The position numbers and the translations under genes were made by a program. The notes beneath the pieces were generated by a model, which saw only the letters and a list, made by a program, of their open reading frames with translations, was not told the origin of the DNA and did not search any database. A stretch of DNA of 44,350 bases. Origin: a virus. The stretch is from UHGV virus genome UHGV-0187309; one strand, 5' to 3'. The first letter of the stretch is position 1, and each line of letters starts with the position of its first letter. This document shows, one piece after another, positions 4,370 through 43,037 of the stretch.

Positions 4370-6298
4370 ATGACTATATATCTTGATAGAGGACCGTTTC
4401 TCACCATTCCCGACAAGCTGCATTCGGGGCAGTACAGAGTGATCCGCAACCCCGACTGGCACGGAGTACTGCCGGAGATCGTGTCCTTCACCGATTTTCT
4501 CAAATGGAATTACACACTGGAGTATGGTCAGTATATCCGCAAATTGCACTACTACCACCAGCTTCCGCTGCCGTGGGTCGTTCCACAGGATGCCGAGATA
4601 GAAACTGTCATCATCGAGGAAGGCAGATATGACCGCATTGATCACAATTCCTTTGATATGTATGTGATATGCGATGTCGTGTTCGAGATGAACGGCTGCC
4701 GGCAGTGCCAGAAGTATATCGTACACGGCTTTTACTGCTCTTACGGCGGTTCAGACTTTCTGTGCGGTGCGGAGCTCTACAATGGTCAGTTTATCCGGCT
4801 GAACAATCCCTTAGATGAGTTTCTGGTTCCCATCCTTTCAAAGAAAGAATTTGCAAGCATTGCACAAGCAATCATCGACCACTACTATTCATACAAATCG
4901 AATTATCCCTGCCGCATCAATACTGCTTCAATTGCAAAGGCAATGGGTCACGATATAAAGTATGCCAGACTGTCAAAAAACGGAAATGTCAAGTCCAAGC
5001 TGATCCTGGACAAGCGGGATACGACCGTCTATGATAAGGAATACAAAGCTGTCAAAATGCGGATCGACAGTCCTACGATCCTTGTGGACGAGTCATTGGA
5101 GGAGGATGAAGCGCAGAACGCCATTATTCATGAGTGCGTTCACGCTTACCTTCACAACCTCTTCTATGAGCTGCAGAGCTACTATCGGAAAATGGTCGGC
5201 AGGAAGATGCCGGAGTTCAATGACTACTTCTATTCCAAGACGCAGCGTAGCTGCCTGAAATGGATGGAAACACAGGCAAATGCCATCCCACGCTTTATTC
5301 AGATGCCGGAGGAGCAGGCATCCGATGTCATCCTGAACTTCTTCGAGCGACTCCCCGGAGAGCCTGACTGGGACGATTACAGAGAACTGATCGACCTTGT
5401 GAAATGGAAGTTCGGAGTATCCCGCAATGCTGCGAAGAAGCGTATCATTGAGCTTGGCTGGCCGGAGGTGCGCGGTGTGTATGTCTACAACACCACAGGA
5501 TATGTTGAGGACTACGATGTAGAGCTAAGATTCCCGCAGGACTATACCTATACACTGTCATTCCGCCAAATCTCTGATGTGTTTGCATCCTGCGAGACCT
5601 TCGCAGAGCTTGTCCGTTCCAAGAAGTTCATCTATCTGGACGGTCATGTTGTGATCAACAGCGACAGGTATATCCGCAAGGAACACGGCTTAGCTATGGG
5701 CTTGACAGAGTATGCTAGACACCACATGGCAGAGTGCTGTCTGGATTTCAAGCGTATCTACGCAGAATTCGACTACAGCTATACCTATGGCGAGCTACAC
5801 AAGGATGACCTGACCGAGATCACGGCCGAAAACCGTTCGTTCAGCGATGAACAGCGAAAGAAGATCCGCATGGCAATGTATGAGATCACAGAAGAAAACT
5901 ATAAACTGACCGTTCCTTCAGATGTCAACGAATTCGGCAAGGCGGTGCGTTTCCATATGGAGAGATGCGGTCTCACCTCGGATCTGGTTGCAGACCGCAG
6001 CGGCATGGGTGTGAACACTGTCAATAAGATGCGCAGTGGCAAGAGAGTGAAGCTCGAAACAGTGCTAGCTTTTTGTGTCGCTTTGGAGCTTGAAGAGTCG
6101 TTCCGCATTGACCTTATGCAGAAAGCGAAGGTTGATTATGATATGAGCAATCCTGCCCATCGGCTCTATGTCACGATCTTTGAGCTGATGCCGAAGGCAA
6201 ATGTCTTTCAGATCAACGATCTGCTGAAGGCAGAAGGCTTTACGCCGTGGACGAGGGACTGCGAGGAAAAGAAGCGGTATGCTAAGAAAAGTATGTAA
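4370..6298 (+). CDS. Large ImmA/IrrE-like HExxH metallopeptidase-domain protein with C-terminal XRE-type HTH
   Basis: 642 aa; HExxH in IIHECVHAYLH; C-terminal HTH-like segment RSGMGVNTVNKMRSGKRVKLETVLAFCVALEL; AGGAGGG RBS. Confidence 0.8.
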   Translation: MTIYLDRGPFLTIPDKLHSGQYRVIRNPDWHGVLPEIVSFTDFLKWNYTLEYGQYIRKLHYYHQLPLPWVVPQDAEIETVIIEEGRYDRIDHNSFDMYVICDVVFEMNGCRQCQKYIVHGFYCSYGGSDFLCGAELYNGQFIRLNNPLDEFLVPILSKKEFASIAQAIIDHYYSYKSNYPCRINTASIAKAMGHDIKYARLSKNGNVKSKLILDKRDTTVYDKEYKAVKMRIDSPTILVDESLEEDEAQNAIIHECVHAYLHNLFYELQSYYRKMVGRKMPEFNDYFYSKTQRSCLKWMETQANAIPRFIQMPEEQASDVILNFFERLPGEPDWDDYRELIDLVKWKFGVSRNAAKKRIIELGWPEVRGVYVYNTTGYVEDYDVELRFPQDYTYTLSFRQISDVFASCETFAELVRSKKFIYLDGHVVINSDRYIRKEHGLAMGLTEYARHHMAECCLDFKRIYAEFDYSYTYGELHKDDLTEITAENRSFSDEQRKKIRMAMYEITEENYKLTVPSDVNEFGKAVRFHMERCGLTSDLVADRSGMGVNTVNKMRSGKRVKLETVLAFCVALELEESFRIDLMQKAKVDYDMSNPAHRLYVTIFELMPKANVFQINDLLKAEGFTPWTRDCEEKKRYAKKSM

Positions 6299-6337: not shown

Positions 6338-6946
6338 ATGCCCTGAAATATTTTCATGAAGCCCCCAGAAAAAATGGGGGCGATTTGCGTTTTTGAAATA
6401 GTTTAGAGACAGAATGTTCATAGAATATCCATTTAATTTAGATGATATGAACAAGTGAAGATGATATATCAAAGTTGAGATAAGCACAGTGCATAAAAAG
6501 CAGCCCCCATTTTTTATGTATGTAAAAGAAGATTCGGATATGTTATGATATAGACACGGTCAAGGACAGGCACCACCTTCCAAGACTGAAACACCACAAT
6601 GCCGGATGCATACGGCAGAGGATGTTCATATGATATCTGAACAGAATGCCATAGGTATACCCTGTGGTCGGAAGCCGATGTCATATGTCTACTCTGTGCT
6701 ATGCATCCGGCTATTTTTTTTGCCGCGGCATTCGGAGCATGGCAATTAGATCATTACATTTGTTAGTCAGGGCGCGCACTGGCGGACAGATGCTCATAGC
6801 GGAAATAACATCACGATTTGGAGTCTGTATAGACTGACAAGGTGTATTTCGTGTGGACATCGTCCCCTGCGTGCCTTTTTCTCTGGGACAGCAGTCGCGT
6901 TATGGGCATCTGCCGCTTGGTGTGTTCCTTGCAGAAAGGAACGATT

Positions 6947-7669
6947 ATGGAAAACGCAAATGTTCAGAATGCTGCCGCTATCACCGATAAGACCACCCTC
7001 GGCGAACTGCTTGCAATGCTTGACCTCGCTGATAAGGCAGGCAAGATGCCGACACCGAGAGAACTGTTTGAGACTGCCGGTTCGCCGATAGCCGATATGA
7101 ATGGCTGCACTCTCTTCAGCAACGGCTTCGCCATCTATCAGAATGTCACTGGGCGCACTGTTGTCTGGCTGCCGTACTGCAAGAGCTTCACCTATTACTT
7201 CGGCAAGCTCCGTGATTCCGAGAAAGACACGCTGACAGAGACCTATGAGCTGCCGGATGGATTTCTGGAAACACAGCCGTGGGTGATCGCAGTAACACTG
7301 ATCGGCGACCATCGTGTGGAGGCAAACAGCATGAACCGCACCGGCAGCCGCAAGGATACCACAGATTATGACAGCGCCGATAACGGCGATAAAGACGGTG
7401 ATGCAGAGGAGGCTTTGGCAGATCCGTATCGCAGGGCATTCAACTGGTATGACGGACGCATGGGCGAGAATCCGCAGGATGCCGTGGAGCGCAGAGAGAC
7501 ACGCGAGGAGATGCTTGCAGACATGACGGACAAGCAGCGTGAAGCCTTTATTATGTACTTCAGGGATGGTATGACGCAGGAAGAGATTGCTTCATATATA
7601 GGGGTAAGCCGTGATTCCATAAATGACAGGCTTGAAGGTGCTTTGAAAAAAGCAAAAAAATATTTTTAG
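6947..7669 (+). CDS. Sigma-70 region-4-like DNA-binding regulator
   Basis: C-terminal QREAFIMYFRDGMTQEEIASYIGVSRDSINDRLEGALKKAKK resembles sigma region 4 HTH; start at ATG 6947 (AAAGGAAC RBS) rather than the longer ORF start at 6842. Confidence 0.7.
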   Translation: MENANVQNAAAITDKTTLGELLAMLDLADKAGKMPTPRELFETAGSPIADMNGCTLFSNGFAIYQNVTGRTVVWLPYCKSFTYYFGKLRDSEKDTLTETYELPDGFLETQPWVIAVTLIGDHRVEANSMNRTGSRKDTTDYDSADNGDKDGDAEEALADPYRRAFNWYDGRMGENPQDAVERRETREEMLADMTDKQREAFIMYFRDGMTQEEIASYIGVSRDSINDRLEGALKKAKKYF

Positions 7670-10601: not shown

Positions 10602-13487
10602 GTGGTGATTTTATTGAGCAGACGTGTACTTTCCATCGACTTAGAGACCTATTCGGATGTAGACCTCCCGAACTGCGGTGTGTACCGCTATGTTGAGGGA
10701 GATTTCCATATCCTGCTGTTCGCATATGCATTTGACGATGAGGAGACAAAATGCGTGGATATGGCCTGCGGGGAGCAGCTCCCGGCAGAGGTCGTGGATG
10801 CGCTGCAGGATGACAGTATTATCAAATCGGCATGGAACGCACAGTTTGAGCGTACCTGCCTTTCAAAATATCTCGGTACGCAGATTTCTCCGGACTCGTG
10901 GCAATGCACGATGGTATGGGCGGCATCGCTTTCACTTCCGCTGAAGCTGGCAACGGCTGCACAGGCACTGAAAACTGCACAGCAGAAGGACGCTGTCGGT
11001 GAGCGTCTTATCCGTTATTTCTCTCTGCCCTGTAAGCCCACCAAAGCAAACGGCGGCAGAACAAGAAATCTGCCGGAACACGCCCCCGAAGACTGGAAGC
11101 TGTTCAAAAGCTACTGCATACAGGACGTGGAAACCGAGCGGGATATCCGCCGCAGGCTTGAAAAGTTCCCCCTGCTCCCGCAGGAATGGGACTACTACCA
11201 CATGGATCAGCGGATCAATGATCGCGGTATCCTGATCGACAAAGAGCTTGTGCAGCAGGCTATTATCTGCAATATGGCAATGTCCGAAGAAATGACAAAA
11301 CGTGCATACGCTCTGACAGGACTTGAAAATCCGAATTCCGTATCACAGCTCAAGGGATGGCTTGAGGAGCGTGGCATTGAGGTGGATTCCCTCGGCAAAA
11401 AGAATGTCGCTTCTCTTATCACAGACCTCGACAGGCACAGCGCAGACGGTGAGGCTCTGGATATGATGAAGCTGCGGTTGCAGATGGCAAAGTCCTCTGT
11501 GAAAAAGTATCAGGCGGCAGAGAGATACATCTGTCAGGACGGCAGGGCGCACGGACTGTTTCAGTTTTCCGGAGCTCAGCGAACACAGCGCTGGTGTCTT
11601 ACCGGCGATCATGAAATACTGACAGATAAAGGCTGGCTCAGGCTTGATAATTGGCAGGGCGGTAAGATTGCTTGTTGGAATCCTAATCAGGAAATGGTCT
11701 CGTTCCAGAAAGCGAACGTATTGTGCTTTGAATATGACGGTCCTATCTACCGCTATGAGGACAAACGGATCGATCAGATCAGCACGCCGGATCACAAAAT
11801 GCGTGTAAAGAAACGGTATAACGGCGAGTGGACGGATGACACTGTTGGCAATATGGAAAAGTATCGTCCTTCTATTCCGTTTACCGGACGCAGACAAACG
11901 ATGCCCGGCTTGGAGCACGCAGAACTGAGGGTACTGGTGATGACGCAGGCTGACGGCAGCTATAAAGAAGATGGAATGCTCTGCTTCCATTTCAAGAAGA
12001 AAAGGAAAATAGAACGGTGCAAACATCTGCTCAGACAGGCGGGCATTTATTTCACAGTGAATGAATGCAGGACAGATGGAACAACGCAGATCAAGATTCC
12101 TTCCCGTGAGCAGCCGATGTATCTAAGAATGTTTCATAACAAGACATTTGGAATGTGGCTTCTCGATGAAAGCCCGGATGTTTTCTTTGATGAGCTTCGG
12201 TATTGGGACGGATCGCAAAGCGCCAAAAACAGTATCCAATATACCACAACGAACAAAGTGAATGCCGATATTGTTCAGGCTTTTGCTCATACAAGTGGTC
12301 GCTGTGCAAAAATGAAAACGGTCATCCGGGATAAAGAACACCCGAATTGGAGCGATGCATACTATCTCGATATATGGCTCACTCCGAAAAACTGTCATGA
12401 AATCAGAGTGAAGCCGACTATCTCGCAATTCAGCGGCAAAATATACTGTGCTGAAACCCCAACCGGATACTTCCTTGTAAGACGTAATGGTAAAGTGTGG
12501 GTAACAGGAAACAGCGGGCGCGGCATTCAATTACAGAACCTGCCGCAGAACCACATCTCTACCCTCGATGAAGCAAGAGAACTTGTCAAAATGGGCTGCT
12601 TTGACATGATCGAAGCACTGTACGGCAATACGCCGGATATCCTGTCACAGCTTATCCGCACGATGCTCATTCCGAAGGACGGCTGTGAATTTATCGTGGC
12701 AGACTTCTCCGCCATTGAAGCGAGAGTACTTGCGTGGCTTGCCGGAGAACAGTGGCGGCTCGATGCCTTCAAGCGTGGCGAGGATATTTACTGTGCATCC
12801 GCATCGCAAATGTTCGGTGTTCCGGTCGTGAAGCACGGCATCAATGGAGAACTGCGGCAGAAAGGCAAGGTCGCTGAGCTTGCCTGTGGTTACGGAGGTG
12901 GCAGCGGTGCGCTGATCTCTATGGGTGCGCTGGATATGGGACTGAAAGAGGATGAACTTCCCGACATCATTTCAAGCTGGCGCGATGCAAACCCGGAGAT
13001 CGTGAAATTCTGGTATGCCGTGGAGAAAGCGGCGATCGAAACAGTCAAGGACCACGCGGAAAGAACGGTCGGCAGGATCGGTTTTCAGTTCTCTGCAAAT
13101 ACACTGTGGATCGTGCTGCCGTCCGGGCGCAGACTTGCCTACATCAAGCCGAGGTTACAGCCGAACCGTTTCGGGCGTATGGCGCTGACCTTTGAAGGAC
13201 TCGGTGCAAACAACAAATGGACGCGCGGTGAGACATACAGCGGCAAGCTGACGGAGAACATCACACAGGCGACCGCCCGTGACCTGCTTGCAGAGGCAAT
13301 GCACCGAATGGAGCTTGCGGGACTTGACATAGTCGGTCATGTGCATGATGAGGTCATTTTGGAAGTGCCGAAAAGACAATATACGGTCGATGATGTGTGC
13401 AATATCATGAATCAAAATCCGAGATGGGCAGACGGTCTGCCCTTATCATCTGCCGGATATACCGGCAATTACTACTTCAAAGACTGA
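10602..13487 (+). CDS. Family A DNA polymerase (3'-5' exonuclease plus polymerase domains) interrupted by an intein
   Basis: N-terminal LSIDLETYS exonuclease motif; after conceptual intein removal RTQRW|SGRGIQLQNLPQN resembles the PolA TGRLSSxxPNLQNIP motif; downstream HVHDEV motif C. Confidence 0.85.
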   Translation: MVILLSRRVLSIDLETYSDVDLPNCGVYRYVEGDFHILLFAYAFDDEETKCVDMACGEQLPAEVVDALQDDSIIKSAWNAQFERTCLSKYLGTQISPDSWQCTMVWAASLSLPLKLATAAQALKTAQQKDAVGERLIRYFSLPCKPTKANGGRTRNLPEHAPEDWKLFKSYCIQDVETERDIRRRLEKFPLLPQEWDYYHMDQRINDRGILIDKELVQQAIICNMAMSEEMTKRAYALTGLENPNSVSQLKGWLEERGIEVDSLGKKNVASLITDLDRHSADGEALDMMKLRLQMAKSSVKKYQAAERYICQDGRAHGLFQFSGAQRTQRWCLTGDHEILTDKGWLRLDNWQGGKIACWNPNQEMVSFQKANVLCFEYDGPIYRYEDKRIDQISTPDHKMRVKKRYNGEWTDDTVGNMEKYRPSIPFTGRRQTMPGLEHAELRVLVMTQADGSYKEDGMLCFHFKKKRKIERCKHLLRQAGIYFTVNECRTDGTTQIKIPSREQPMYLRMFHNKTFGMWLLDESPDVFFDELRYWDGSQSAKNSIQYTTTNKVNADIVQAFAHTSGRCAKMKTVIRDKEHPNWSDAYYLDIWLTPKNCHEIRVKPTISQFSGKIYCAETPTGYFLVRRNGKVWVTGNSGRGIQLQNLPQNHISTLDEARELVKMGCFDMIEALYGNTPDILSQLIRTMLIPKDGCEFIVADFSAIEARVLAWLAGEQWRLDAFKRGEDIYCASASQMFGVPVVKHGINGELRQKGKVAELACGYGGGSGALISMGALDMGLKEDELPDIISSWRDANPEIVKFWYAVEKAAIETVKDHAERTVGRIGFQFSANTLWIVLPSGRRLAYIKPRLQPNRFGRMALTFEGLGANNKWTRGETYSGKLTENITQATARDLLAEAMHRMELAGLDIVGHVHDEVILEVPKRQYTVDDVCNIMNQNPRWADGLPLSSAGYTGNYYFKD
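11595..12512 (+). mobile_element. Intein (about 306 aa) within the DNA polymerase
   Basis: Begins CLTGDHEILT (block A-like), ends YFLVRRNGKVWVTGN followed by Ser as +1 residue (block F/G-like); flanking exteins rejoin into a conserved polymerase motif. Confidence 0.65.
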
Positions 13488-14780: not shown

Positions 14781-15217
14781 GAGAATATGTTGTCGAAAAC
14801 GAGTTTGTCAAGGCGGTAAAAGCGGCAGGCGGTGTGGCATACAAGCTGACATCGCAGACCGCAAACGGACTGCCGGACAGACTCGTTCTGTTCCCGGCGG
14901 CAAAGACGATTTTCGTGGAGCTGAAAGCACCGGGGAAAATGATGCGACCGTTGCAGCGTAAAAGACGGTATCAGCTTATGAAACTCGGCTTTCCGGTGCT
15001 GTGCATTGACAGGATGCCGCAGATCAAGCCGTTCATATCAGCAGCATTGTCATGGACACCCGGTGAGCCGTTCCCGGAAGGCATCGGTGCGAAGATACCC
15101 GATCTGGAAAGGGCAACGCTGCCGACGGATATGGATAACTTCGGGGAAACGCTTGAACCCATCGATCCAGACAATCTGATAGAGTTTTATGAAATAGAGG
15201 ACGGTGATGATGCATGA
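14777..15217 (+). CDS. VRR-NUC domain nuclease
   Basis: ENEFVKAVKAAGGVAYKL...GLPDRLVLFP...FVELKAPGK pattern typical of VRR-NUC; likely TTG start at 14777 after GGAAGGACGG. Confidence 0.7.
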   Translation: MREYVVENEFVKAVKAAGGVAYKLTSQTANGLPDRLVLFPAAKTIFVELKAPGKMMRPLQRKRRYQLMKLGFPVLCIDRMPQIKPFISAALSWTPGEPFPEGIGAKIPDLERATLPTDMDNFGETLEPIDPDNLIEFYEIEDGDDA

Positions 15218-15711
15218 TTAACCCTAAACGCAGAGCTGTGAGAAAAAGCTGCTCATACTGCGGAACTGTCTTTACCTATGTCGGAAGTCATGGTACAAGA
15301 AATAAGCATTTTTTCTGTTCTCATGAATGCTATATTGCCTTTAAGACAAAGAAAGCAGAAGTGAAATGCGATTGGTGCGGCAAATCAATGCTGAAAAAAC
15401 GCTCTGATATATGGAGAACGGATCACAATTTCTGCTGCCCCGAATGCTGTTTACTGTATAGGCAAAAGCAAGGCGAAACTTCATGGAATCATCGTGTGAA
15501 TGGAATAACCGTACACAGGGGCATTTTGGAGAAGAAGCTCGGACGAGAACTGCGTGCGGATGAAGAAGTACACCTTATCGATGGTAACCATTTCAATAAT
15601 GATCCGGACAATCTCATCGCCCTTTCCAAATCGGAACACGCCAAAATTCATTCTTCTTGGAAAGCGAGGGACGAGTATGGAAAATACGTTAAAACGCAGT
15701 CAGATTCATGA
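15214..15711 (+). CDS. HNH homing-type endonuclease
   Basis: 165 aa; multiple CxxC pairs plus HLIDGNHFNNDPDNLIALSKSEHAKIH HNH motif. Confidence 0.85.
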   Translation: MINPKRRAVRKSCSYCGTVFTYVGSHGTRNKHFFCSHECYIAFKTKKAEVKCDWCGKSMLKKRSDIWRTDHNFCCPECCLLYRQKQGETSWNHRVNGITVHRGILEKKLGRELRADEEVHLIDGNHFNNDPDNLIALSKSEHAKIHSSWKARDEYGKYVKTQSDS

Positions 15712-17059: not shown

Positions 17060-17144
17060 GATCATACTCTCCGTATGATCCGCACTGAAAAGACGACAAA
17101 GCGGCGACAAAACGGTTACACCGCACTCTATGGAGGTGAAAACT

Positions 17145-17648
17145 ATGGCGCGTAAGAACAAACGCCTGAAAACAGAATACCACAGAGGTCTCGGTTTTGA
17201 TCCGCGAAAGTATATGACTTCCTACTCCCACCAAACTCGCTGTGAATCAATTCCGACTCCCGACCGTGCTCCAAAGCGCGGCGATATCTGGTTTGCGCGG
17301 CTCGGCACACATCCGAATTCCAGTGTGCAGGGCGGCACCCGTCCCGTTATCATCATTTCTAACGACCTCGGCAACGAACACGCTGACACCGTCAATGTTG
17401 TGCCGATGACCAGACACCTGAAAAAGCCGGAGCTGCCTTGTCACACTCCGCTTTCTCCCGGCAGCATTACCGATAGCAGACAGCCGCTTGAACTGTCAAT
17501 GGTGCTGGCGGAGCAGCTCACAACTGTCAGCAAGAACGCACTTCGCTATTATGCAGGTCATATTTCCGATGACGAAGCTATGAACCGCATCGAAACCGCT
17601 GTTATTGCGCAGCTCAGTCTTGAAAGGAGATATTCCAAATGCCTGTGA
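17145..17648 (+). CDS. MazF/PemK-like endoribonuclease-fold protein with ~45 aa N-terminal extension
   Basis: KRGDIWFARLGTHPNSSVQGGTRPVIIISNDLGNEHADTVNVVPMT matches the PemK/MazF core pattern (GDIW...G.EQ.G.RPV.V.S...N....V.V.P.T); GGAGGTGA RBS. Confidence 0.65.
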   Translation: MARKNKRLKTEYHRGLGFDPRKYMTSYSHQTRCESIPTPDRAPKRGDIWFARLGTHPNSSVQGGTRPVIIISNDLGNEHADTVNVVPMTRHLKKPELPCHTPLSPGSITDSRQPLELSMVLAEQLTTVSKNALRYYAGHISDDEAMNRIETAVIAQLSLERRYSKCL

Positions 17649-20068
17649 ATTTTGTCAATATCCCAGATGTTCTGAAGCAGACCGCTTCTTTCTGTGTCTG
17701 GAAGCTGGAAAAGAGATCCGGCAGACCGACCAAAGTACCGTATAACCCTCGCACCGGTGCAATGGCGAGAACCAACGATCCGTCTACCTTTGCAGACTTC
17801 AATACAGCAATGAAATCCTATGCCATCGGCGGATGGGACGGTATCGGCTATCGTGTCAGCGAAGGCATCGGTGCAATCGACATCGACCACTGCATCCGTG
17901 AGGACGGCAGTCTCAATGATGTTGCAGCATCCATTCTCGGTATCTTCCCCGATGCGTACTTTGAGCGCAGCCCCTCTGGTACCGGCTTGCGCGGCTTTTT
18001 TCGCCTTTCTCCTGATTTCGCCTACGATAAGACTGTGTACTACATCAACAACCGAAAGCACGGTCTGGAGGTCTATCTTCCCGGTGTGACGAACCGCTTT
18101 GTGACTGTTACAGGAGATATGTTCCGCAATGGTGCAGTTACCCGAAATGACGGTTCCCTGCGCACACTACTTGATACCTTCATGAAGCGCAGCACCCGTG
18201 TATCTTCCAAGACTGTCGAGCCTGTGTCCTATCTCGATGATGACGGTGTTATCGCTCACGCATCGGCATCTGAATCCGGCGACAAGTTCAAAGCACTGTA
18301 TGCCGGTAACTGGGAGGAAGGCTACGATTCCCAGTCCGATGCAGATATGGCGCTTGTGTCTATCCTTGCATTCTGGTGCGGTAATGTCGAGGAGCAGATC
18401 GACCGTATCTTCCGAACTTCCGGTCTGATGCGTGATAAGTGGGATCGTATGACCGGAGACAGAACTTACGGACAGATCACGATCCGCAATGCTGTCGCTA
18501 CCAATTCCGCTGTCTATACACCGATTCAGGATTCTACGGCAGAAGATGACTTTGACGATATCGAGGGCGATGCGGAAAATGAGCAGCTTATGTTTGAGCC
18601 TGATCTCACCCATGTTTCCCTGACGCTGGAAGAAATGCAGCCGCACACGAATCCCCGCTATCAGCGTGACGAGATCGGCATCGGATATGCATTTGCGGAT
18701 TATTATAAGCCCATCGCTCGTTTTGACCGTGAGCGCGGCATCTGGTATGTCTTTGACGGGAAGGTGTGGCAGCCGGACGAGAATGCGCTTGCCGTGGCGG
18801 AGCTTGCAAAGCGTCTGGCAGACAGGCTGTATACCTTTGCCCTTCAGATCAAGGATGAGGACACACGCAACCGCTATATCAAGCGAGTGCAGAAGCTGCA
18901 AATGCGGAAGAACCGCCGCACCATGATCGAAGATGCGAAATCCGTGTATCCAGTGCCGCACGCTATCTTTGACCGCAATACCTACCTTTTCAACTGTCAG
19001 AACGGGACACTGAACCTCACCACAGGTGAATTCCGTCCGCACGATCCGGCAGACTTTCTCACCATGATGTCCGGTGTCACTTATGATCCGAACGCCACCT
19101 GTCCACGATGGGAGCAGTTCATTTCCGAAGTTATGTGTAATGATGCTGACCTCGCATTATACTTGCAAAAAGCCCTCGGATATGCGCTTACCGGCGACAC
19201 ATCACTGGAATGCCTGTTCATCCTCTACGGTGCAACATCCAGAAACGGCAAAGGCACCACAATGGAGACCTTTCTCAAAATCATGGGCGACTACGGCAAA
19301 ACCTCCAATCCGGAGATGCTGTCTACGAAATTCGGCAACACCAATGCTTCCGGACCGTCCGAAGAGATCGCCCGGCTTGCGGGTGTCCGTTTTGTCAATA
19401 TCTCCGAGCCGGAGAAGAAGATCACCTTCAATGCGGCACTGGTAAAGCGTATGACGGGTAATGATACACTGAATGCACGTTTCCTGCATGAGAATTCCTT
19501 CGACTTCCGACCGAATTTCAAGATCTTCATCAATACGAATTACAAACCGTCCGTTTCTGATATGACACTGTTTTACTCCAACCGTCTGAAGCTCATTCCG
19601 TTCAAACGCCATTTTGAGGAGCATGAGCAGGACAAAGGTCTGAAAGCATTTTTCAGTACGTATGTCTGCCTCTCTGCCATCTTCAACTGGTGCTATGAAG
19701 GATATAAGCGGTTCCGTTCCGAAGATCTGGAAGATCCGGCTGCTGTATCTCAAGCAACCAAGGAGTATCAGGAGGAGTCTGACCGTATCGGGCAGTTTGT
19801 GGATGCGTGGCTCGAAGAAGGCGAAGCATTTGAAGTCCGTACCTCTGCGGCATATAAGCTGTACGGTGAATGGTGCGATAAATATGGCTACCGCAAGGAA
19901 AACAGCACCAACTTCAATAACGCGATCCAGCGTTTCTTCCCCATCGTGCGTAAGCGCCCGAACGATACTAAGGGTGCGCAGAAAACAACGATGCTTGTGG
20001 GCTGTCGTTTTCTGGAGCATGAAAACGGCGAAGCTGACGAACCAGAGGAGTTTGCAGCTTTGGAGTAA
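17639..20068 (+). CDS. Phage/plasmid primase (prim-pol N-terminal domain plus D5-like SF3 helicase region)
   Basis: 809 aa; Walker A YGATSRNGKGT, primase C-terminal region, typical phage replication-module position. Confidence 0.85.
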   Translation: MPVNFVNIPDVLKQTASFCVWKLEKRSGRPTKVPYNPRTGAMARTNDPSTFADFNTAMKSYAIGGWDGIGYRVSEGIGAIDIDHCIREDGSLNDVAASILGIFPDAYFERSPSGTGLRGFFRLSPDFAYDKTVYYINNRKHGLEVYLPGVTNRFVTVTGDMFRNGAVTRNDGSLRTLLDTFMKRSTRVSSKTVEPVSYLDDDGVIAHASASESGDKFKALYAGNWEEGYDSQSDADMALVSILAFWCGNVEEQIDRIFRTSGLMRDKWDRMTGDRTYGQITIRNAVATNSAVYTPIQDSTAEDDFDDIEGDAENEQLMFEPDLTHVSLTLEEMQPHTNPRYQRDEIGIGYAFADYYKPIARFDRERGIWYVFDGKVWQPDENALAVAELAKRLADRLYTFALQIKDEDTRNRYIKRVQKLQMRKNRRTMIEDAKSVYPVPHAIFDRNTYLFNCQNGTLNLTTGEFRPHDPADFLTMMSGVTYDPNATCPRWEQFISEVMCNDADLALYLQKALGYALTGDTSLECLFILYGATSRNGKGTTMETFLKIMGDYGKTSNPEMLSTKFGNTNASGPSEEIARLAGVRFVNISEPEKKITFNAALVKRMTGNDTLNARFLHENSFDFRPNFKIFINTNYKPSVSDMTLFYSNRLKLIPFKRHFEEHEQDKGLKAFFSTYVCLSAIFNWCYEGYKRFRSEDLEDPAAVSQATKEYQEESDRIGQFVDAWLEEGEAFEVRTSAAYKLYGEWCDKYGYRKENSTNFNNAIQRFFPIVRKRPNDTKGAQKTTMLVGCRFLEHENGEADEPEEFAALE

Positions 20069-20374
20069 AAGTAGACTTTTCTCCGTATTTACGCTGTTTT
20101 CCGCAGTTGGGGCAGCGTGGGGCAAGTTTTTTCGGTGGTTATTATTATTACTTCTCTTTATATATATTACTATTTTTACTTGCCCCTACTTGCCCCAAAT
20201 AAATAAAAACAATAGAAAAGATAAGAAGAATAGAGGATTTTCACTGATTTGAACCATTACCCATTTTGCACTGTTTTGAACCTTGCCCGATGCTGTCACT
20301 GACAAAGAGTGTGTAAGCGACAAAGCGTGGCAAGGTCAAAATCCAATAAACAATCATACAGGAGGAACACGAAT

Positions 20375-21469
20375 ATGAGAATCATTACTTCAGAACAGGT
20401 ATCCGCAGGACATCCCGACAAGATCTGTGACCAAATCGCGGATGCCATCGTGACAGACTGCCTTCAGCATGACCGCAGCAGTCGTGTTGCGATAGAGTGT
20501 CTTTTCAAGAACCGCTGTCTTGTGATCGCCGGTGAGCTGACCAGTACCCATGAGCCGGACTACAAGGCTCTGGTGCAGCAGGTGTTCGACCGTATCAACA
20601 ACGGCGGAGCTGAGAACAGCGATGCGGGACTTGACTACAAGCTGGACTTCACCGCCGATGATCTGGACATTGCGATTCTGGTCGATCACCAGAGCAATGA
20701 CATTGCGCTCGGTGTGAATGTCGGCGGTGCAGGAGATCAGGGTATGATGTACGGCTATGCGACCAACGAAACGCCGGAGATGCTCCCGATCCCCTTCGTG
20801 CTGGCTACCAGATTTCTGGAACTGCTGAAAGCCTACCCCTGCCGTATGCTGAAAGCCGATGCAAAGGCACAGGTCAGCTATGACTATGACAGCGGTCGCA
20901 TTACCACCTTCCTCTGCTCGGTGCAGCATACACACGATGTGGATGTTGAGGACTTCAAGCCCATCATCGAAAAGCTGATGGTGAGAACGGCAACCGAATA
21001 CGGGCTGAATACAGACTTTGCAAAGCTCGTCAACCCGACCGGCAGATTTGTCATAGGCAGTTCCTTTGCGGACTGCGGCGTTACCGGACGCAAGCTCGCC
21101 TGCGATACCTATGGCGGTATCGGGCATATCGGCGGCGGTGCAATGTCCGGCAAAGATCCGTCTAAGGTTGACCGCAGCGGCGCATATGCAGCAAGAAAAA
21201 TCGCAAGGGATATCGTCAGCGCCGGATATTCAGACAAGGCAGAGGTGCAGATCGCATACGCCATCGGTGTGGCAGAGCCCGTATCCGTGTATGTAGAGAC
21301 TTTTGGCACGGAGCATCAGGATACGGAGTTCATCAACCAGTATGTTCGTGAGAATTATGACCTCACGCCGAGGGGAATCATCGAAGGGCTGCATCTGCTC
21401 GATGTGGACTATAACGCCATTTCCGCATACGGACACTTCGGAAAACAGAACCTTCCGTGGGAACTATAA
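20375..21469 (+). CDS. metK: S-adenosylmethionine synthetase
   Basis: GHPDKICDQIADAI, GGGAMSGKDPSKVDRSGAYAAR and overall MetK architecture; AGGAGGA RBS. Confidence 0.9.
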   Translation: MRIITSEQVSAGHPDKICDQIADAIVTDCLQHDRSSRVAIECLFKNRCLVIAGELTSTHEPDYKALVQQVFDRINNGGAENSDAGLDYKLDFTADDLDIAILVDHQSNDIALGVNVGGAGDQGMMYGYATNETPEMLPIPFVLATRFLELLKAYPCRMLKADAKAQVSYDYDSGRITTFLCSVQHTHDVDVEDFKPIIEKLMVRTATEYGLNTDFAKLVNPTGRFVIGSSFADCGVTGRKLACDTYGGIGHIGGGAMSGKDPSKVDRSGAYAARKIARDIVSAGYSDKAEVQIAYAIGVAEPVSVYVETFGTEHQDTEFINQYVRENYDLTPRGIIEGLHLLDVDYNAISAYGHFGKQNLPWEL

Positions 21470-31222: not shown

Positions 31223-31405
31223 TCATTCAGATTTCTTGTCTCCGCCAAGCTCGATCTTTCCGTGCTTTTCCTCATATTTTTCAATGCAGTCACGGATCAG
31301 GATCAGAACCTGACTGTTGGCAGAACGACCTTCGTAATCGGCAACAACGTGAAGTTTATCAAGCATCTCCTGTTCGATACGGATGGATACACTTTTAATA
31401 GCCAT
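31223..31405 (-). CDS. Ribbon-helix-helix (CopG/Arc/MetJ-like) DNA-binding protein
   Basis: 60 aa; MAIKSVSIRIEQEMLDKL N-terminal beta-strand plus helices typical of RHH; only minus-strand gene in a long plus-strand block. Confidence 0.7.
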   Translation of the reverse strand: MAIKSVSIRIEQEMLDKLHVVADYEGRSANSQVLILIRDCIEKYEEKHGKIELGGDKKSE

Positions 31406-31518
31406 AAAACAACTTCCTTTCAGATATATTATGACTTTATTTTAGACCTGTTTTGTGGTATAATGTTTGAAATGGATATAAAGTGTATCTAAAATATATC
31501 TATAAGAAGTTGTACGAT

Positions 31519-31857
31519 ATGAAAATAGCAATTATTGGCTCACGGGGACTTCATGTGAATGACCTTGAACGGTATCTTCCGGAAGATGTCACAGAAATCG
31601 TCAGCGGAGGAGCAAGGGGCATTGATTCGGATGCGCGGGCATACGCACAGGCACACGGCATTCCGCTGAAGGAGTTTCTGCCGGATTATGAACGCTTCGG
31701 CAGGAGCGCCCCGCTGAAACGGAATCTTGAGATCATCGCTTATGCCGATGTGGTGCTTGCATTCTGGGACGGACAGTCACGCGGCACGAAATATGTGATA
31801 GACCATTGCCGGGAACAGCACGTTCCGGTCAGGGTTTTCGCACCGAGAAAGAAATAG
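31519..31857 (+). CDS. SLOG-superfamily (DprA/LOG-like, DUF2493-like) small Rossmann-fold protein
   Basis: KIAIIGSRG ... VSGGARGIDSDA ... AFWDGQSRGT pattern shared with DprA/LOG-type domains; extended -10 TGGTATAAT promoter just upstream. Confidence 0.65.
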   Translation: MKIAIIGSRGLHVNDLERYLPEDVTEIVSGGARGIDSDARAYAQAHGIPLKEFLPDYERFGRSAPLKRNLEIIAYADVVLAFWDGQSRGTKYVIDHCREQHVPVRVFAPRKK

Positions 31858-39897: not shown

Positions 39898-40371
39898 ATG
39901 GCTCAGAGAGGCAGAAAACCGACGCCGACAGCAATCAAGGAACTGGAAGGCAATCCCGGAAAACGACCGCTGAATGATGCAGAGCCGAAGCCGGAACGCA
40001 AGGCACCGCCCTGTCCGAAGTGGCTGGAGCCCGAAGCAAAAAAGGAATGGCGCAGGCTGTCAAAGCAACTGGAGCAGATTGGTGTGCTGACCGAGGTCGA
40101 TCAGGCGGCATTCGCATCCTACTGTCAGGCATACGCACGATGGAAAGAAGCCGAGGAATTCATGACCCAGCACGGCACGATCGTAAAAACAAAATCAGGT
40201 TACTGGCAGCAGGTTCCGCAGGTATCCATTGCGCAAACTTATCTGAAGATCATGAACAAGATCGCAGAGCAGTTTGGCCTGACCCCGGCGGCAAGAAGCC
40301 GTATCACTGCCGGCGCAGATATGAAAAACGCTGCCGTTGACGATATGGATGAACTTCTCGGAGGTGGCTGA
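39898..40371 (+). CDS. Terminase small subunit (P27-family-like)
   Basis: MAQRGRKPTPTAIKELEGNPGKRP N-terminus and FGLTPAARSRI near the C-terminus; immediately upstream of and overlapping terminase large subunit. Confidence 0.8.
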   Translation: MAQRGRKPTPTAIKELEGNPGKRPLNDAEPKPERKAPPCPKWLEPEAKKEWRRLSKQLEQIGVLTEVDQAAFASYCQAYARWKEAEEFMTQHGTIVKTKSGYWQQVPQVSIAQTYLKIMNKIAEQFGLTPAARSRITAGADMKNAAVDDMDELLGGG

Positions 40372-43037
40372 TGGCGAGAACGGCAAAGGCAAGAGAAAGA
40401 CCTGCCAACTATCCGAAACTGAAGGATTATAAACCGACACGCTTTATGCTGCCGGAATCGCACTACGATGCGGCAAAGGCTGACCGAGCTGTGCGGTTCA
40501 TCGAGAATCTCTGCCATACCAAAGGACGCTGGGCAGGCAAACCGTTCTGGCTGCTTCCGTGGCAGGAACAGATCATCCGGGATATTTTCGGCATCGTCAA
40601 AGAGGACGATATGCGGCAATTTCGTACCGCCTATGTCGAAATTCCAAAGAAAAATGGGAAGCAGCTTGCACTGGATACACCGATCCCGACTCCGCAGGGA
40701 TTCACCAATATGGGAGATCTGAAGGTCGGAGATACAGTATTCGATGAAAACGGCATTCCGTGCCATGTGGTTGCGAAAAGTCCTGTGGATGATACAGAGC
40801 AAGCCTACAAGCTGACCTTCAAGGACGGCACCTCGATCATTGCCGGGGAAAGGCATCTGTGGAACTGTCAGTATATTTACGGCAAACGCAAGGATGTTCT
40901 CTGGACGACCGGCGAGATCTATCGCAGGACAACGGAATACAGACAGCGTTTTTCCGACAGACCACAGACAAAGCGGGATTCCCTTATCCGAATTCCGGTG
41001 TGCGGTGTCCTTCAGACAGAAGCGGCAGTTTTACCGATTGATCCGTATCTGTACGGCTACTGGCTCGGAAACGGTAATGTGACCATGCCGGAGATCACTG
41101 TTCGGACGGAGGATGTCGAGGATATCATCTCGAATATTCCGTATAAGGTACACAACCGTTATCCGCAGAAATGCGGCGGCAGTGAGATCATAAAGTACAA
41201 TGAACTGAAAGCAGTACTACTTGACAGCTTCCGTGAAAAGAAGATCCGACCAGAATATCTGAGGGCATCCGCAGAGCAGAGATGGGCATTACTGCAAGGG
41301 CTTATGGATTCGGACGGCTGTATCGGCGAACGCAAAGGGCAAAGTGTGTATGTCACAACGCTGCGAGAGCTGGCGCTTTCCGTCAGAGAACTGCTGTGGT
41401 CACTCGGCATCAAAAATGCAGTGAAATGTGAGCCTTCTACACGGCATGGGTGGCCGACCGGCGAGATTTTGTATATCGTCCGTTTTACAACCTTTGATGG
41501 CCAACCGACATCAAGGCTTAAACGCAAAAATACACGCACACAGGCGCGGTTAAAGGAAACTCGCTCCTGTTTTCATTATCTGCTGGATATTCAACCTGTA
41601 AATCATCCTGTAAAAATGCAGTGCATTCAGGTGGACAGTCCGAGTCACCAATATCTCGCAGGACCGTCATTTGTGCCTACGCACAACAGTGAGCTTGCAG
41701 CGGCAATTGCACTGTATCTGCTCTACGCCGACAACGAGCCGTCTGCTGAGGTCTACGGCGCTGCTGCTGATCGTGGGCAGGCATCCATTGTATTCGATGT
41801 CGCCAAAAGAATGGTTGAGATGACACCGGCACTTCTGAAACGCTCAAAAATCATGGCGGCGACAAAGCGTCTGGTGAATTACAGTAATGTTGGCTTTTAT
41901 CAGGTGCTTTCAGCGGAAGTCGGTACAAAGCACGGATTGAATGTATCCGGTCTGGTTTTGGATGAACTTCATGCCCAACCGAACCGCAGCCTTGTGGATG
42001 TTCTCACAAAGGGTTCCGGTGATGCCCGTACTCAGCCGCTGTACTTCCTGATCACAACCGCCGGAACGGATCGCAACAGCATCTGCTACGAGTATCACAC
42101 GAAAGCAAAAGATATTCTGGACGGCAGGCGCATTGATCCGTCCTTCTATCCTGTGATCTACGGCTTGAACGATGATGACGACTGGAACGCAGAGGAGTCA
42201 TGGTATAAGGCAAATCCCTCGCTCGGATACACTATCGCCATCGACCGAGTCCGCGATGCTCACCGGGAAGCCCTTACAAATCCCGCTGAAGAAAATGTAT
42301 TCCGTCAGCTGAGGCTTGACCAGTGGGTAGGCAGTGCGGTGGCATGGATTCCGGAGCATATCTACGACAGGGGCAATCTTCCGATCGACCTCGAAAAGCT
42401 CCGGGGACGGGAGTGCTACGCAGGTCTTGACCTATCCAGCACATCGGATATCACGGCATTTGTGCTGGTGTTCCCTCCGCTGCATGACGGCGAGAAATAC
42501 ATCGTTGTCCCGCACTTCTGGCTGCCGAGAGAAACGCTCGATTTGCGAGTACGGCGAGACCATGTTCCCTACGATGTATGGGAGCGCATGGGATTATTTC
42601 ATATCACCGAGGGCAATGTGGTCGATTACAATTTCGTGCGGAAAACGATCAACGAGCTGCACACGATGTACAACATCAAGGAAATTGCTGCCGACCGCTG
42701 GAATGCCACACAGCTTATCACAGACCTTGAGGGAGACGGATTTACCGTTGTTCCGATGGGTATGGGCTTCAAGGATATGTCCCCGCCGATGAAGGAACTG
42801 TACAAGCTCATACTCGAGGGGCAGTTTATCCACGGCGGCAACCCTGTACTCCGCTGGATGGCAGGAAATGTGGTCGCTGAAATTGATGCAGCGGAGAACA
42901 TCAAACCAAGTAAAAAGAAAAGTACAGAAAAGATTGACGGTATCGTGGCATGGATCATGGCACTTGACCGCTGCATCCGCCACGAAATGCAGGGCAGTGT
43001 CTATGACGAACCCGGCCACGATCTTGTGGTCATCTGA
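40371..43037 (+). CDS. Terminase large subunit interrupted by an intein in the Walker A P-loop
   Basis: N-extein ends YVEIPKKNGK and C-extein resumes SELAAAIALYLLYADNEPSAEVYGAA, together restoring PKKNGKS; downstream VLDELH Walker B and nuclease domain. Confidence 0.9.
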   Translation: MARTAKARERPANYPKLKDYKPTRFMLPESHYDAAKADRAVRFIENLCHTKGRWAGKPFWLLPWQEQIIRDIFGIVKEDDMRQFRTAYVEIPKKNGKQLALDTPIPTPQGFTNMGDLKVGDTVFDENGIPCHVVAKSPVDDTEQAYKLTFKDGTSIIAGERHLWNCQYIYGKRKDVLWTTGEIYRRTTEYRQRFSDRPQTKRDSLIRIPVCGVLQTEAAVLPIDPYLYGYWLGNGNVTMPEITVRTEDVEDIISNIPYKVHNRYPQKCGGSEIIKYNELKAVLLDSFREKKIRPEYLRASAEQRWALLQGLMDSDGCIGERKGQSVYVTTLRELALSVRELLWSLGIKNAVKCEPSTRHGWPTGEILYIVRFTTFDGQPTSRLKRKNTRTQARLKETRSCFHYLLDIQPVNHPVKMQCIQVDSPSHQYLAGPSFVPTHNSELAAAIALYLLYADNEPSAEVYGAAADRGQASIVFDVAKRMVEMTPALLKRSKIMAATKRLVNYSNVGFYQVLSAEVGTKHGLNVSGLVLDELHAQPNRSLVDVLTKGSGDARTQPLYFLITTAGTDRNSICYEYHTKAKDILDGRRIDPSFYPVIYGLNDDDDWNAEESWYKANPSLGYTIAIDRVRDAHREALTNPAEENVFRQLRLDQWVGSAVAWIPEHIYDRGNLPIDLEKLRGRECYAGLDLSSTSDITAFVLVFPPLHDGEKYIVVPHFWLPRETLDLRVRRDHVPYDVWERMGLFHITEGNVVDYNFVRKTINELHTMYNIKEIAADRWNATQLITDLEGDGFTVVPMGMGFKDMSPPMKELYKLILEGQFIHGGNPVLRWMAGNVVAEIDAAENIKPSKKKSTEKIDGIVAWIMALDRCIRHEMQGSVYDEPGHDLVVI
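40662..41687 (+). mobile_element. Intein (about 342 aa) with LAGLIDADG-like homing endonuclease region, class-3-like features
   Basis: Begins QLALDTPI (block A-like, Gln not Cys/Ser at position 1), block B GTSIIAGERHLW, LAGLIDADG-like LLQGLMDSDGCIGE, block F/G MQCIQVDSPSHQYLAGPSFVPTHN then Ser. Confidence 0.65.

Follow-up and report, generated by a model that had tools for sequence, protein, structure and literature searches.

In the pathogenicity islands of Staphylococcus aureus (SaPIs), experiments have placed the replication origin immediately 3' of rep, and the C-terminal winged-helix domain of the Rep protein binds short iterons within it (PMC9371898). This origin has an AT-rich centre with at least two iterons per side, in opposite orientation, and Rep binds and melts it without ATP and loads itself (PMC9371898). 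In dairy streptococcal and lactococcal phages, a non-coding element of the replication module was found to behave like a phage-activated origin, which titrates the replication proteins when present in multicopy (PMC6356513). The present study concerns UHGV virus genome UHGV-0187309, a stretch of 44,350 nucleotides (the window), in which a non-coding region separates the gene of a primase-helicase from metK (S-adenosylmethionine synthetase). The first part of this region, 20069-20236, is probably a phage replication origin of the iteron type used by self-loading superfamily 3 (SF3) initiator-helicases.

An origin is proposed here because the anatomy of the element matches that of the SaPI origin, and because the initiator is homologous. 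We infer its function from sequence, and likewise the physical binding, melting, priming and replication that such a function implies.

Organization of the putative origin

An earlier note on this DNA had described inverted repeats across an AT-rich tract after the primase gene, and this was confirmed. Two arms of 21 nt each are 81% complementary and enclose 50 nt (Table 1). The true repeating unit within the arms is a 7-bp core, TGGGGCA, which occurs four times, two copies per arm. The copies inside each arm are phased by 10 bp; measured from centre to centre, the inner pair (iterons 2 and 3) are 63 bp apart and the outer pair (iterons 1 and 4) 83 bp.

The 50-mer between the arms (20129-20178) is 82% A+T. 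With -50.5 kcal/mol, it ranks second for low stability among the 50-mer duplexes of the window (mean -70.3 kcal/mol, standard deviation 4.6). The least stable one, 31459-31508, lies within a divergent intergenic region (31400-31520) with a small minus-strand gene and an extended -10 box (TGGTATAAT; TGnTATAAT). This region was rejected as a second origin candidate, being an ordinary divergent promoter region.

A search for any exact 6-mer present as a tandem pair (copies 8-12 bp apart) together with an inverted tandem pair found the arrangement once in the window, at this locus, and it arose in only one of 200 block-shuffles of the whole window. The core TGGGGCA itself is not enriched across the window (7 copies against 5.8 expected), and it is clustered, with three exact copies and one variant inside 90 bp.

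Outside the arms, the left flank carries a block, TTTTCTCC-GTATTTACGC-TGTTTTCC, which is partly kept in close relatives irrespective of their iteron class, and a short hairpin (ACGCTG...CAGCGT) that overlaps iteron 1. The A-rich polypurine tract on the other side is probably a component of the origin, where it may serve bending, melting or priming.

Conservation among relatives

Loci encoding relatives of the primase were gathered from viral contigs, genomes and metagenomes, and the sequence 3' of the stop codon was inspected. An automatic test, which required a tandem pair of units, then an AT-rich gap and an inverted tandem pair, was passed, after the same gene, by 92 of the 110 distinct loci with enough sequence, the primases of these relatives ranging down to ~58% identity. 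The element lies 38-250 nt after the stop codon, or beyond an insertion of 1.4 kb (locus L021). Its units are spaced by 9 or 10 bp, and the inner sites are mostly 62-63 bp apart, sometimes ~67 or ~85.

The absence of the repeats from related phages had been named in the earlier note as an observation that would speak against an origin. They are present at the same position, and their sequences change in concert. This conservation, the covariation with the protein described below and the SaPI-like anatomy support the note's proposal of an origin made up of repeats and an AT-rich unwinding element beside the primase/helicase gene.

Positions 3-4 of the core vary between phages (TGGGGCA, TGTAGCA, TGTCGCA, TGGGCA), always in the four copies together. 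More distant relatives show the same layout with TGTTGCA, TGTAGGA, TGTAGAT, TGTAGTG, TGGGGAT, TGGGGAG, GGGAAAG, GTAAAAG or TGTGCAG. The spacer block CTTTATATATATTA is invariant in all 16 aligned close relatives, which belong to four iteron classes; the same alignment shows good conservation of the T-run that follows the left arm and of the polypurine tract that follows the right one.

Two cultured phages, whose primases are ~31% identical to the one studied here, also have the two-plus-two layout after the homologous gene. In Bacillus phage phi105 (L133, 3655-3775) the units are TGTTACTT (two copies) and AGTAACAA (two copies), and in Listeria phage PSA (L134, 3540-3730) the unit is GGTGGATAGTT. 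Neither record has an origin annotated at the position of the iterons. The two-plus-two layout is thus general and under-annotated.

That the repeats arose by chance, or by a recent local duplication, and serve no function is hardly conceivable. The lack of over-representation of TGGGGCA across the window would fit such an origin of the repeats, but the rarity of the layout among the shuffled sequences stands against it, and the conservation in the relatives and in phi105 and PSA refutes it.

Additional repeats were seen at some loci. Extra iteron copies follow directly after the primase stop codon in L019, L017 and L128, and direct-repeat arrays stand upstream or downstream of the core origin in L046 (GCAACA, five copies, 5690-5750), L027 (a 20-bp unit, three copies) and L132 (a 15-bp unit, five copies).

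Pairs of prophages from the same assembly (L058/L071, L062/L090, L067/L080, L103/L106 and L070/L085) differ in iteron class in all five testable cases. Such differences between co-resident prophages fit selection against cross-talk of origins, although with ~10 classes they are not significant alone.

Inverted repeats may also act through their structure. The arms could form a long hairpin or cruciform, serving either as a stem-loop origin in the style of pRN1 and Bordetella phage BIP-1, or as a terminator between the replication genes and metK. As single-stranded DNA, 20100-20205 does fold into the expected hairpin (-15.75 kcal/mol, z-score -3.9), the changes in the arms are compensatory across relatives, and a weak terminator-like hairpin with a T-run is present at 20088-20131. 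Proteins of the pRN1 type, with an archaeo-eukaryotic primase (AEP), an SF3 helicase plus a winged helix, have moreover been reported with a stem-loop 3' of their gene (PMC4234260). The hairpin, however, follows trivially from four identical inverted sites, and the columns outside the cores are complementary between the arms in only 80 of 204 cases (39%). Moreover, the core is always identical between the tandem copies of an arm, and a stem would have no need of this. A structure alone would also leave the covariation with a loop of the protein unexplained, and no Rfam match was found. Because the tandem copies share their core and the linkers pair in so few cases, four protein-binding sites are favoured, and an element acting through its structure is very unlikely.

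The terminator version of this idea, which the earlier note had offered as a bidirectional terminator, found no support. An intrinsic terminator has a short GC-rich hairpin with a loop of 3-8 nt and a U-run directly after it. The arms would enclose a loop of 50 nt with poorly complementary linkers, the RNA fold of the upstream part is unexceptional (z-score -1.9), and the flanking genes all lie on one strand. The match of the terminator scan (20088-20121 plus tail) has 13 pairs, four of them G-C, with the T-run starting 5 nt past the stem, and terminator-like matches in the region are at shuffle level (3 against 2.5). Judged as an intrinsic terminator, the element is poor.

Coupling between the initiator and the iterons

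The primase-helicase consists, in order, of an AEP prim-pol domain, an NrS-1-type helix bundle, D5_N, the SF3 helicase and a Pox_D5/winged-helix-like C-terminal domain; the Pfam matches included D5_N, DUF5906 and Pox_D5. Its best solved relative, aligned over the full length, is 7OLA (E 4.6e-42), which we take to be the structure of SaPI5 PriRep5 (PMC9371898). A profile built from 32 C-terminal domains matched the C-terminal domain of 7OLA (E 2.4e-6) and the DNA-binding domain of RFX5 (E 0.015). In the latter alignment, RKRPxDGxG stands opposite the RFX wing ARRLGGRGQS. The Pfam family RFX_DNA_binding was matched with E 6.6e-4, which lies under the curated cut-off. An AlphaFold2 model of the C-terminal domain (27 sequences) shows the order strand, helix, helix, strand, loop, strand, the loop being residues 773-783. 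The winged helix of RFX1 is known to read the major groove by its wing rather than by its helix (PMC4333399). Because of the RFX5 wing alignment, the loop in the model and the precedent of RFX1, it is plausible that residues 778-782 sit in a DNA-reading wing.

In an alignment of 32 primases (888 columns), only residues 778, 780, 781 and 782 separate, among close relatives, the GGGGCA class from the GTAGCA and GTCGCA classes. The predicted wing reads ND[TG][KN]GAQK-TTM in the GGGGCA class, SDGSGG-P-TTM in the GTAGCA class, GS-Q-TTM in the GTCGCA class and GS-A-TTM in the GTTGCA class. Mutual information with iteron class, calculated for 53 non-redundant full-length primases, was highest at columns 780 and 781 (1.3 of 1.81 bits), the next best column reaching 0.99. 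In a tblastn control, the discriminating positions of the primase were 780 and 782 only, and no class-discriminating residue was detected in the MazF-like gene or in metK. The control also listed positions in SNF2 (residues 1-50); these were discounted as artefacts of missing data, most iteron classes having none there, and other genes were rejected as the specificity partner.

Counted over distinct loci, all 40 with Lys at the wing tip have G-run cores, all 10 with Pro have GTAG, and all 10 with Thr, Val or Ser have GTTG. Gln is found with GTCG in nine loci, with GTAG in 18 and with GTTG in one, and its pairing with GTCG holds in close relatives. In the 18 Gln/GTAG loci the wing has the context GGG-Q; these loci are so similar that they seem to form one human-gut lineage.

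Because the wing codons lie only ~125 nt from the first iteron, hitch-hiking had to be weighed. The protein tail encoded between them assorts independently of iteron class: the tail EEFAALE was found with GGGG and with GTAG, and the tail DHAAT...AFS with GTAG and with GTCG. In L021 (5412-6890), the 1.4-kb insertion, with two reverse-strand open reading frames (ORFs), lies between the stop codon of the primase and the putative origin, which is otherwise intact, and the pairing survives. Simple linkage was therefore rejected as its cause.

The iterons of L021 (wing GG-P) had been predicted from the wing before inspection, and were found to be TGTAGCA. The prediction for P0017/L125 (wing GQK) also held, with iterons of the GGGGCA type. 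For P0005 and P0011 (wing S-V) there was no prior prediction, and TGTTGCA was found in both. P0016 (wing GGGQ) has TGTAGC, like L099, and in P0006 (wing GGSP), whose contig is truncated, an arm mixes TGTTGCA and TGTAGCA. Taken together, the covariation of wing and core, the controls and the two confirmed predictions are strong, if indirect, sequence evidence that the initiator would recognise its cognate iterons specifically.

A simple recognition code can be put forward tentatively, and it may or may not hold. One or two residues at the wing tip would set core positions 3-4, with Lys specifying GG, Pro TA, Gln TC, and Thr, Val or Ser TT. Specificity would then have been re-set repeatedly in this large family of Clostridia phages by a tiny change in the protein and a concerted change of the four sites. 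The pressure behind such switches could be the avoidance of cross-talk or hijacking among co-resident prophages and satellites.

The covariation shows a coupling to the protein, and not what the binding does. The four sites might be bound by the C-terminal domain of the primase-helicase and act as an operator or roadblock, in autoregulation of the replication operon or in the control of read-through into the metK operon. Their location between two operons, the T-run after the left arm and a separate conserved element just downstream would suit such a role. An operator, however, would need neither a stretch of low stability flanked by the sites nor a spacer core that is invariant across specificity classes, and no sigma-70-like promoter was found at the arms or in the spacer. 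The closest characterised homologue, moreover, has this exact layout as its origin (PMC9371898). An operator is accordingly considered unlikely.

Proposed mechanism of initiation

As an origin, the element would work as follows. The primase-helicase would recognise TGGGGCA through the wing loop of its C-terminal winged helix (residues ~773-783, with Lys782 at the tip). The two 10-bp-phased pairs of sites would face each other, and since their centre distances of 63 and 83 bp correspond to about six and eight helical turns, all four sites would lie roughly on one face of the helix. The protein would assemble at both sides of the 56-bp spacer, the spacer would melt, rings of the SF3 helicase would be loaded, and the N-terminal AEP domain would prime. 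The phage's own family-A polymerase, single-stranded DNA-binding protein (SSB) and exonuclease would then take over elongation. As a speculation, the blocks that do not vary with class, CTTTATATATATTA and the polypurine tract, would have roles that are independent of specificity, e.g. melting, bending or priming.

Several points weigh against this interpretation or lend it no help. The layout test failed in 18 of the 110 loci, several of which (e.g. L027, L033 and L046) show the layout by eye. The assignment of residues 778-782 to a wing draws on weak profile matches (the RFX family of Pfam, and RFX5), and the AlphaFold2 model of the domain is of low confidence (predicted local distance difference test score, 51). 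In distant relatives the rule that links residue and base has exceptions, GTAG being found with Gln in L099 and L131 and with Ala in L081, L089 and L119. Binding by the primase could in principle serve autoregulation and not initiation. The window is only part of a genome, and a second iteron cluster like the crr of phage P4, or another origin, may possibly lie elsewhere. The cumulative GC skew, a check suggested in the earlier note, shows only a plateau at 16-22 kb in the window; because transcription is one-stranded, it is uninformative and counts neither way.

Table 1. Positions of the putative origin, its parts and the adjoining features in the window
Feature	Position	Strand	Remarks
Codons of residues 778-782 (K-G-A-Q-K)	19970-19984	+	Predicted wing-loop tip; proposed specificity determinant for the iteron core
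Left flank of putative origin	20069-20107	+	Alignment of close relatives; RNA fold z-score -1.9
Left arm of inverted repeat, TTGGGGCAGCGTGGGGCAAGT	20107-20127		
Iteron 1 (outer left), TGGGGCA	20108-20114	+	First base 40 nt past the stop codon (20068)
Iteron 2 (inner left), TGGGGCA	20118-20124	+	10 bp from iteron 1
AT-rich spacer, 56 bp	20125-20180		Proposed DNA unwinding element; holds the T-run 20127-20132
Class-invariant spacer block, CTTTATATATATTA	20156-20169		
Right arm of inverted repeat, ACTTGCCCCTACTTGCCCCAA	20178-20198		
Iteron 3 (inner right), AGGGGCA	20181-20187	-	One-base variant of the core
Iteron 4 (outer right), TGGGGCA	20191-20197	-	
A-rich polypurine tract, AAATAAATAAAAACAATAGAAAAGATAAGAAGAATAGAGG	20198-20236	+	Adjoins the right arm; kept in close relatives whatever the iteron class
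Imperfect tandem of 27 nt (TTTGAACC... repeats)	20238-20264 and 20265-20291	+	78% identity
Second conserved non-coding element	20279-20345	+	Just 5' of the ribosome-binding site of the next gene
Primase-helicase gene	17639-20068	+	809 aa; proposed origin-binding initiator
Non-coding stretch between the primase-helicase gene and metK	20069-20374		
metK (S-adenosylmethionine synthetase)	20375-21469	+	First gene downstream; Pfam

The region downstream of the putative origin

The earlier note had also listed direct repeats downstream of the arms. These TTTGAACC repeats do exist, as an imperfect tandem, and represent a local duplication; since only one copy is present in the closest relatives (L009, L012 and L022), the repeats are not part of the conserved structure of the origin.

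A second conserved non-coding element follows. It contains the blocks CTTGCC, GACAAAGnGTG (two copies) and TGGCAAGGT, and is kept in relatives even where the downstream gene is not metK. More distant relatives have two copies of [CT]TTGTGG followed by GGCAAAGG..GCTTTG. Searches of the window with motifs of this element (GACAAAGnGTG and CTTTGTGG) gave no informative second location. It is probably a regulatory leader or promoter rather than a part of the origin, and may be a promoter for a phage sigma-like protein, or an operator. No sigma-70-like promoter was found on the plus strand of the region, the single match lying on the minus strand (20381-20353), and the counts of the scans for sigma-70 promoters and terminators were at shuffle level.

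The window encodes a 275-residue protein with a sigma-70 region-4 domain (6842-7669), a sigma-like factor which could drive non-canonical promoters. The leader 20236-20380 was rejected as a structured RNA on present evidence: its single-sequence fold had a z-score of -0.74, and the fold of the alignment was without covariation.

Gene neighbourhood and host element

The genes of the window were assigned by Pfam and PHROG matches. Its gene content assigns the window to a temperate phage or prophage; besides the sigma-70 region-4 protein, there is a CI/LexA-like repressor, encoded on the minus strand. From 4.3 kb onwards, a single strand carries all genes. The replication module comprises a DUF2800 exonuclease, an Enc34-type SSB, a family-A polymerase, an SNF2 helicase, a MazF-like gene and the primase-helicase, and is followed by metK, NrdD/NrdG, two DNA methylases and the large terminase. 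No tRNA genes were found, and Rfam searches, of the whole window at the gathering threshold and of the region at E<=1, gave only a spurious match to the MIR172 hairpin.

Among GenBank phages, no close DNA relative spans the intergenic region, and a match was obtained only in metK. An identical primase in the nr database is entered as 'MAG TPA: Superfamily 3 helicase [Caudoviricetes sp.]', and in one source a homologue with 92% identity goes under the name 'phage/plasmid primase, P4 family'. At E <= 1e-20, the primase has more than 3400 homologues. Relatives are located in genomes of rumen and gut Oscillospiraceae, Ruminococcus, Lachnospiraceae, Faecalibacterium and Blautia.

Four further genes of the window deserve mention. 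The family-A DNA polymerase ORF (10602-13487, 961 residues) holds, as its matches suggest, an inserted element, possibly an intein, because Pfam DNA_pol_A covers just residues 683-814 while residues 332-657 have PHROG matches to ribonucleotide reductase and PhoH-like families. In the large terminase (40371-43037, 888 residues), the ATPase and nuclease domains are preceded by a LAGLIDADG_3 domain at residues 303-369, probably a homing-endonuclease insertion or an intein. At 15214-15711, an ORF encoding an HNH_3 endonuclease domain overlaps the GTG (15554) that had been called mechanically as the start of the SNF2 helicase ORF; the helicase probably starts further downstream. The MazF/PemK-like toxin gene (17130-17648) is placed after the SNF2 helicase and before the primase, whose start it overlaps; just 5' of the toxin gene, at 17094-17115, there is a perfect-phase tandem repeat of two copies of CGACAAAACGG.

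Implications

Origins are almost never annotated in metagenomic phage genomes. The present study offers an origin signature for abundant Clostridia phages and prophages of the rumen and human gut, namely two-plus-two phased sites around CTTTATATATATTA after the gene of an AEP-SF3 primase-helicase. It also offers a testable hypothesis on how origin specificity is encoded, in the form of a candidate code from wing to iteron. If this code is true, sequence data could reveal origin specificity and incompatibility groups, which could also be re-engineered. This bears on the compatibility of prophages, on phage-resistance elements of the titration type, and on replicons for gut anaerobes that are poorly tractable.

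Comparison with known origins

Since origins of this kind are already known from SaPIs and P4, the present candidate is confirmatory rather than surprising. Like the SaPI origin, it lies directly after the ORF of an initiator-helicase, and it has an AT-rich centre with two oppositely pointing iterons on each side. In both systems the initiator is an SF3 helicase with a C-terminal winged helix, a fold assigned here from weak RFX matches and a model of low confidence, and in SaPI5 an AEP primase is likewise fused to the initiator (PMC9371898). In contrast to the 6-12 penta- or hexanucleotide iterons of the SaPIs, there are four sites with a 7-bp core and a strict phasing of 9-10 bp, and the C-terminal domains are only remotely similar. 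The element also belongs to a rumen or gut Clostridia phage or prophage and not to a satellite island; it is not a SaPI, because a polymerase, an SSB, an exonuclease, a large terminase and a CI/LexA-like repressor of its own are encoded in the window.

The SF3 initiators of eukaryotic viruses, SV40 large T antigen and papillomavirus E1, form two hexamers on four short sites in inverted pairs beside AT-rich or easily melted DNA. Unlike the primase-helicase studied here, they have an origin-binding domain of another fold, placed N-terminal to the helicase, and no fused primase.

Phage P4 requires two separated clusters of repeats, ori and crr, whereas no second TGGGGCA cluster was found in the 44-kb window, which is not a whole genome. 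The primases differ as well, that of P4 being of the Toprim type and the one studied here, by its homology to NrS-1-type proteins and PriRep5, an AEP. The two systems agree in that the P4 alpha protein also combines a primase, an SF3 helicase and a C-terminal winged-helix origin-binding domain in one polypeptide, and binds repeated sites (PMC4234260).

In ORF904 of pRN1 and in Bordetella phage BIP-1, an AEP prim-pol, an SF3 helicase plus a winged helix are again found together, with the origin just 3' of the gene (PMC4234260). Their origins, however, are described as stem-loops of ~100 nt without iterons (PMC4234260), whereas the present locus has four discrete 7-bp sites with unpaired linkers. 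A functional precedent, by its description, is given by the 'phage-encoded resistance' elements of dairy phages, such as the 302-bp element of phage Sfi21 (PMC6356513); the initiators may differ.

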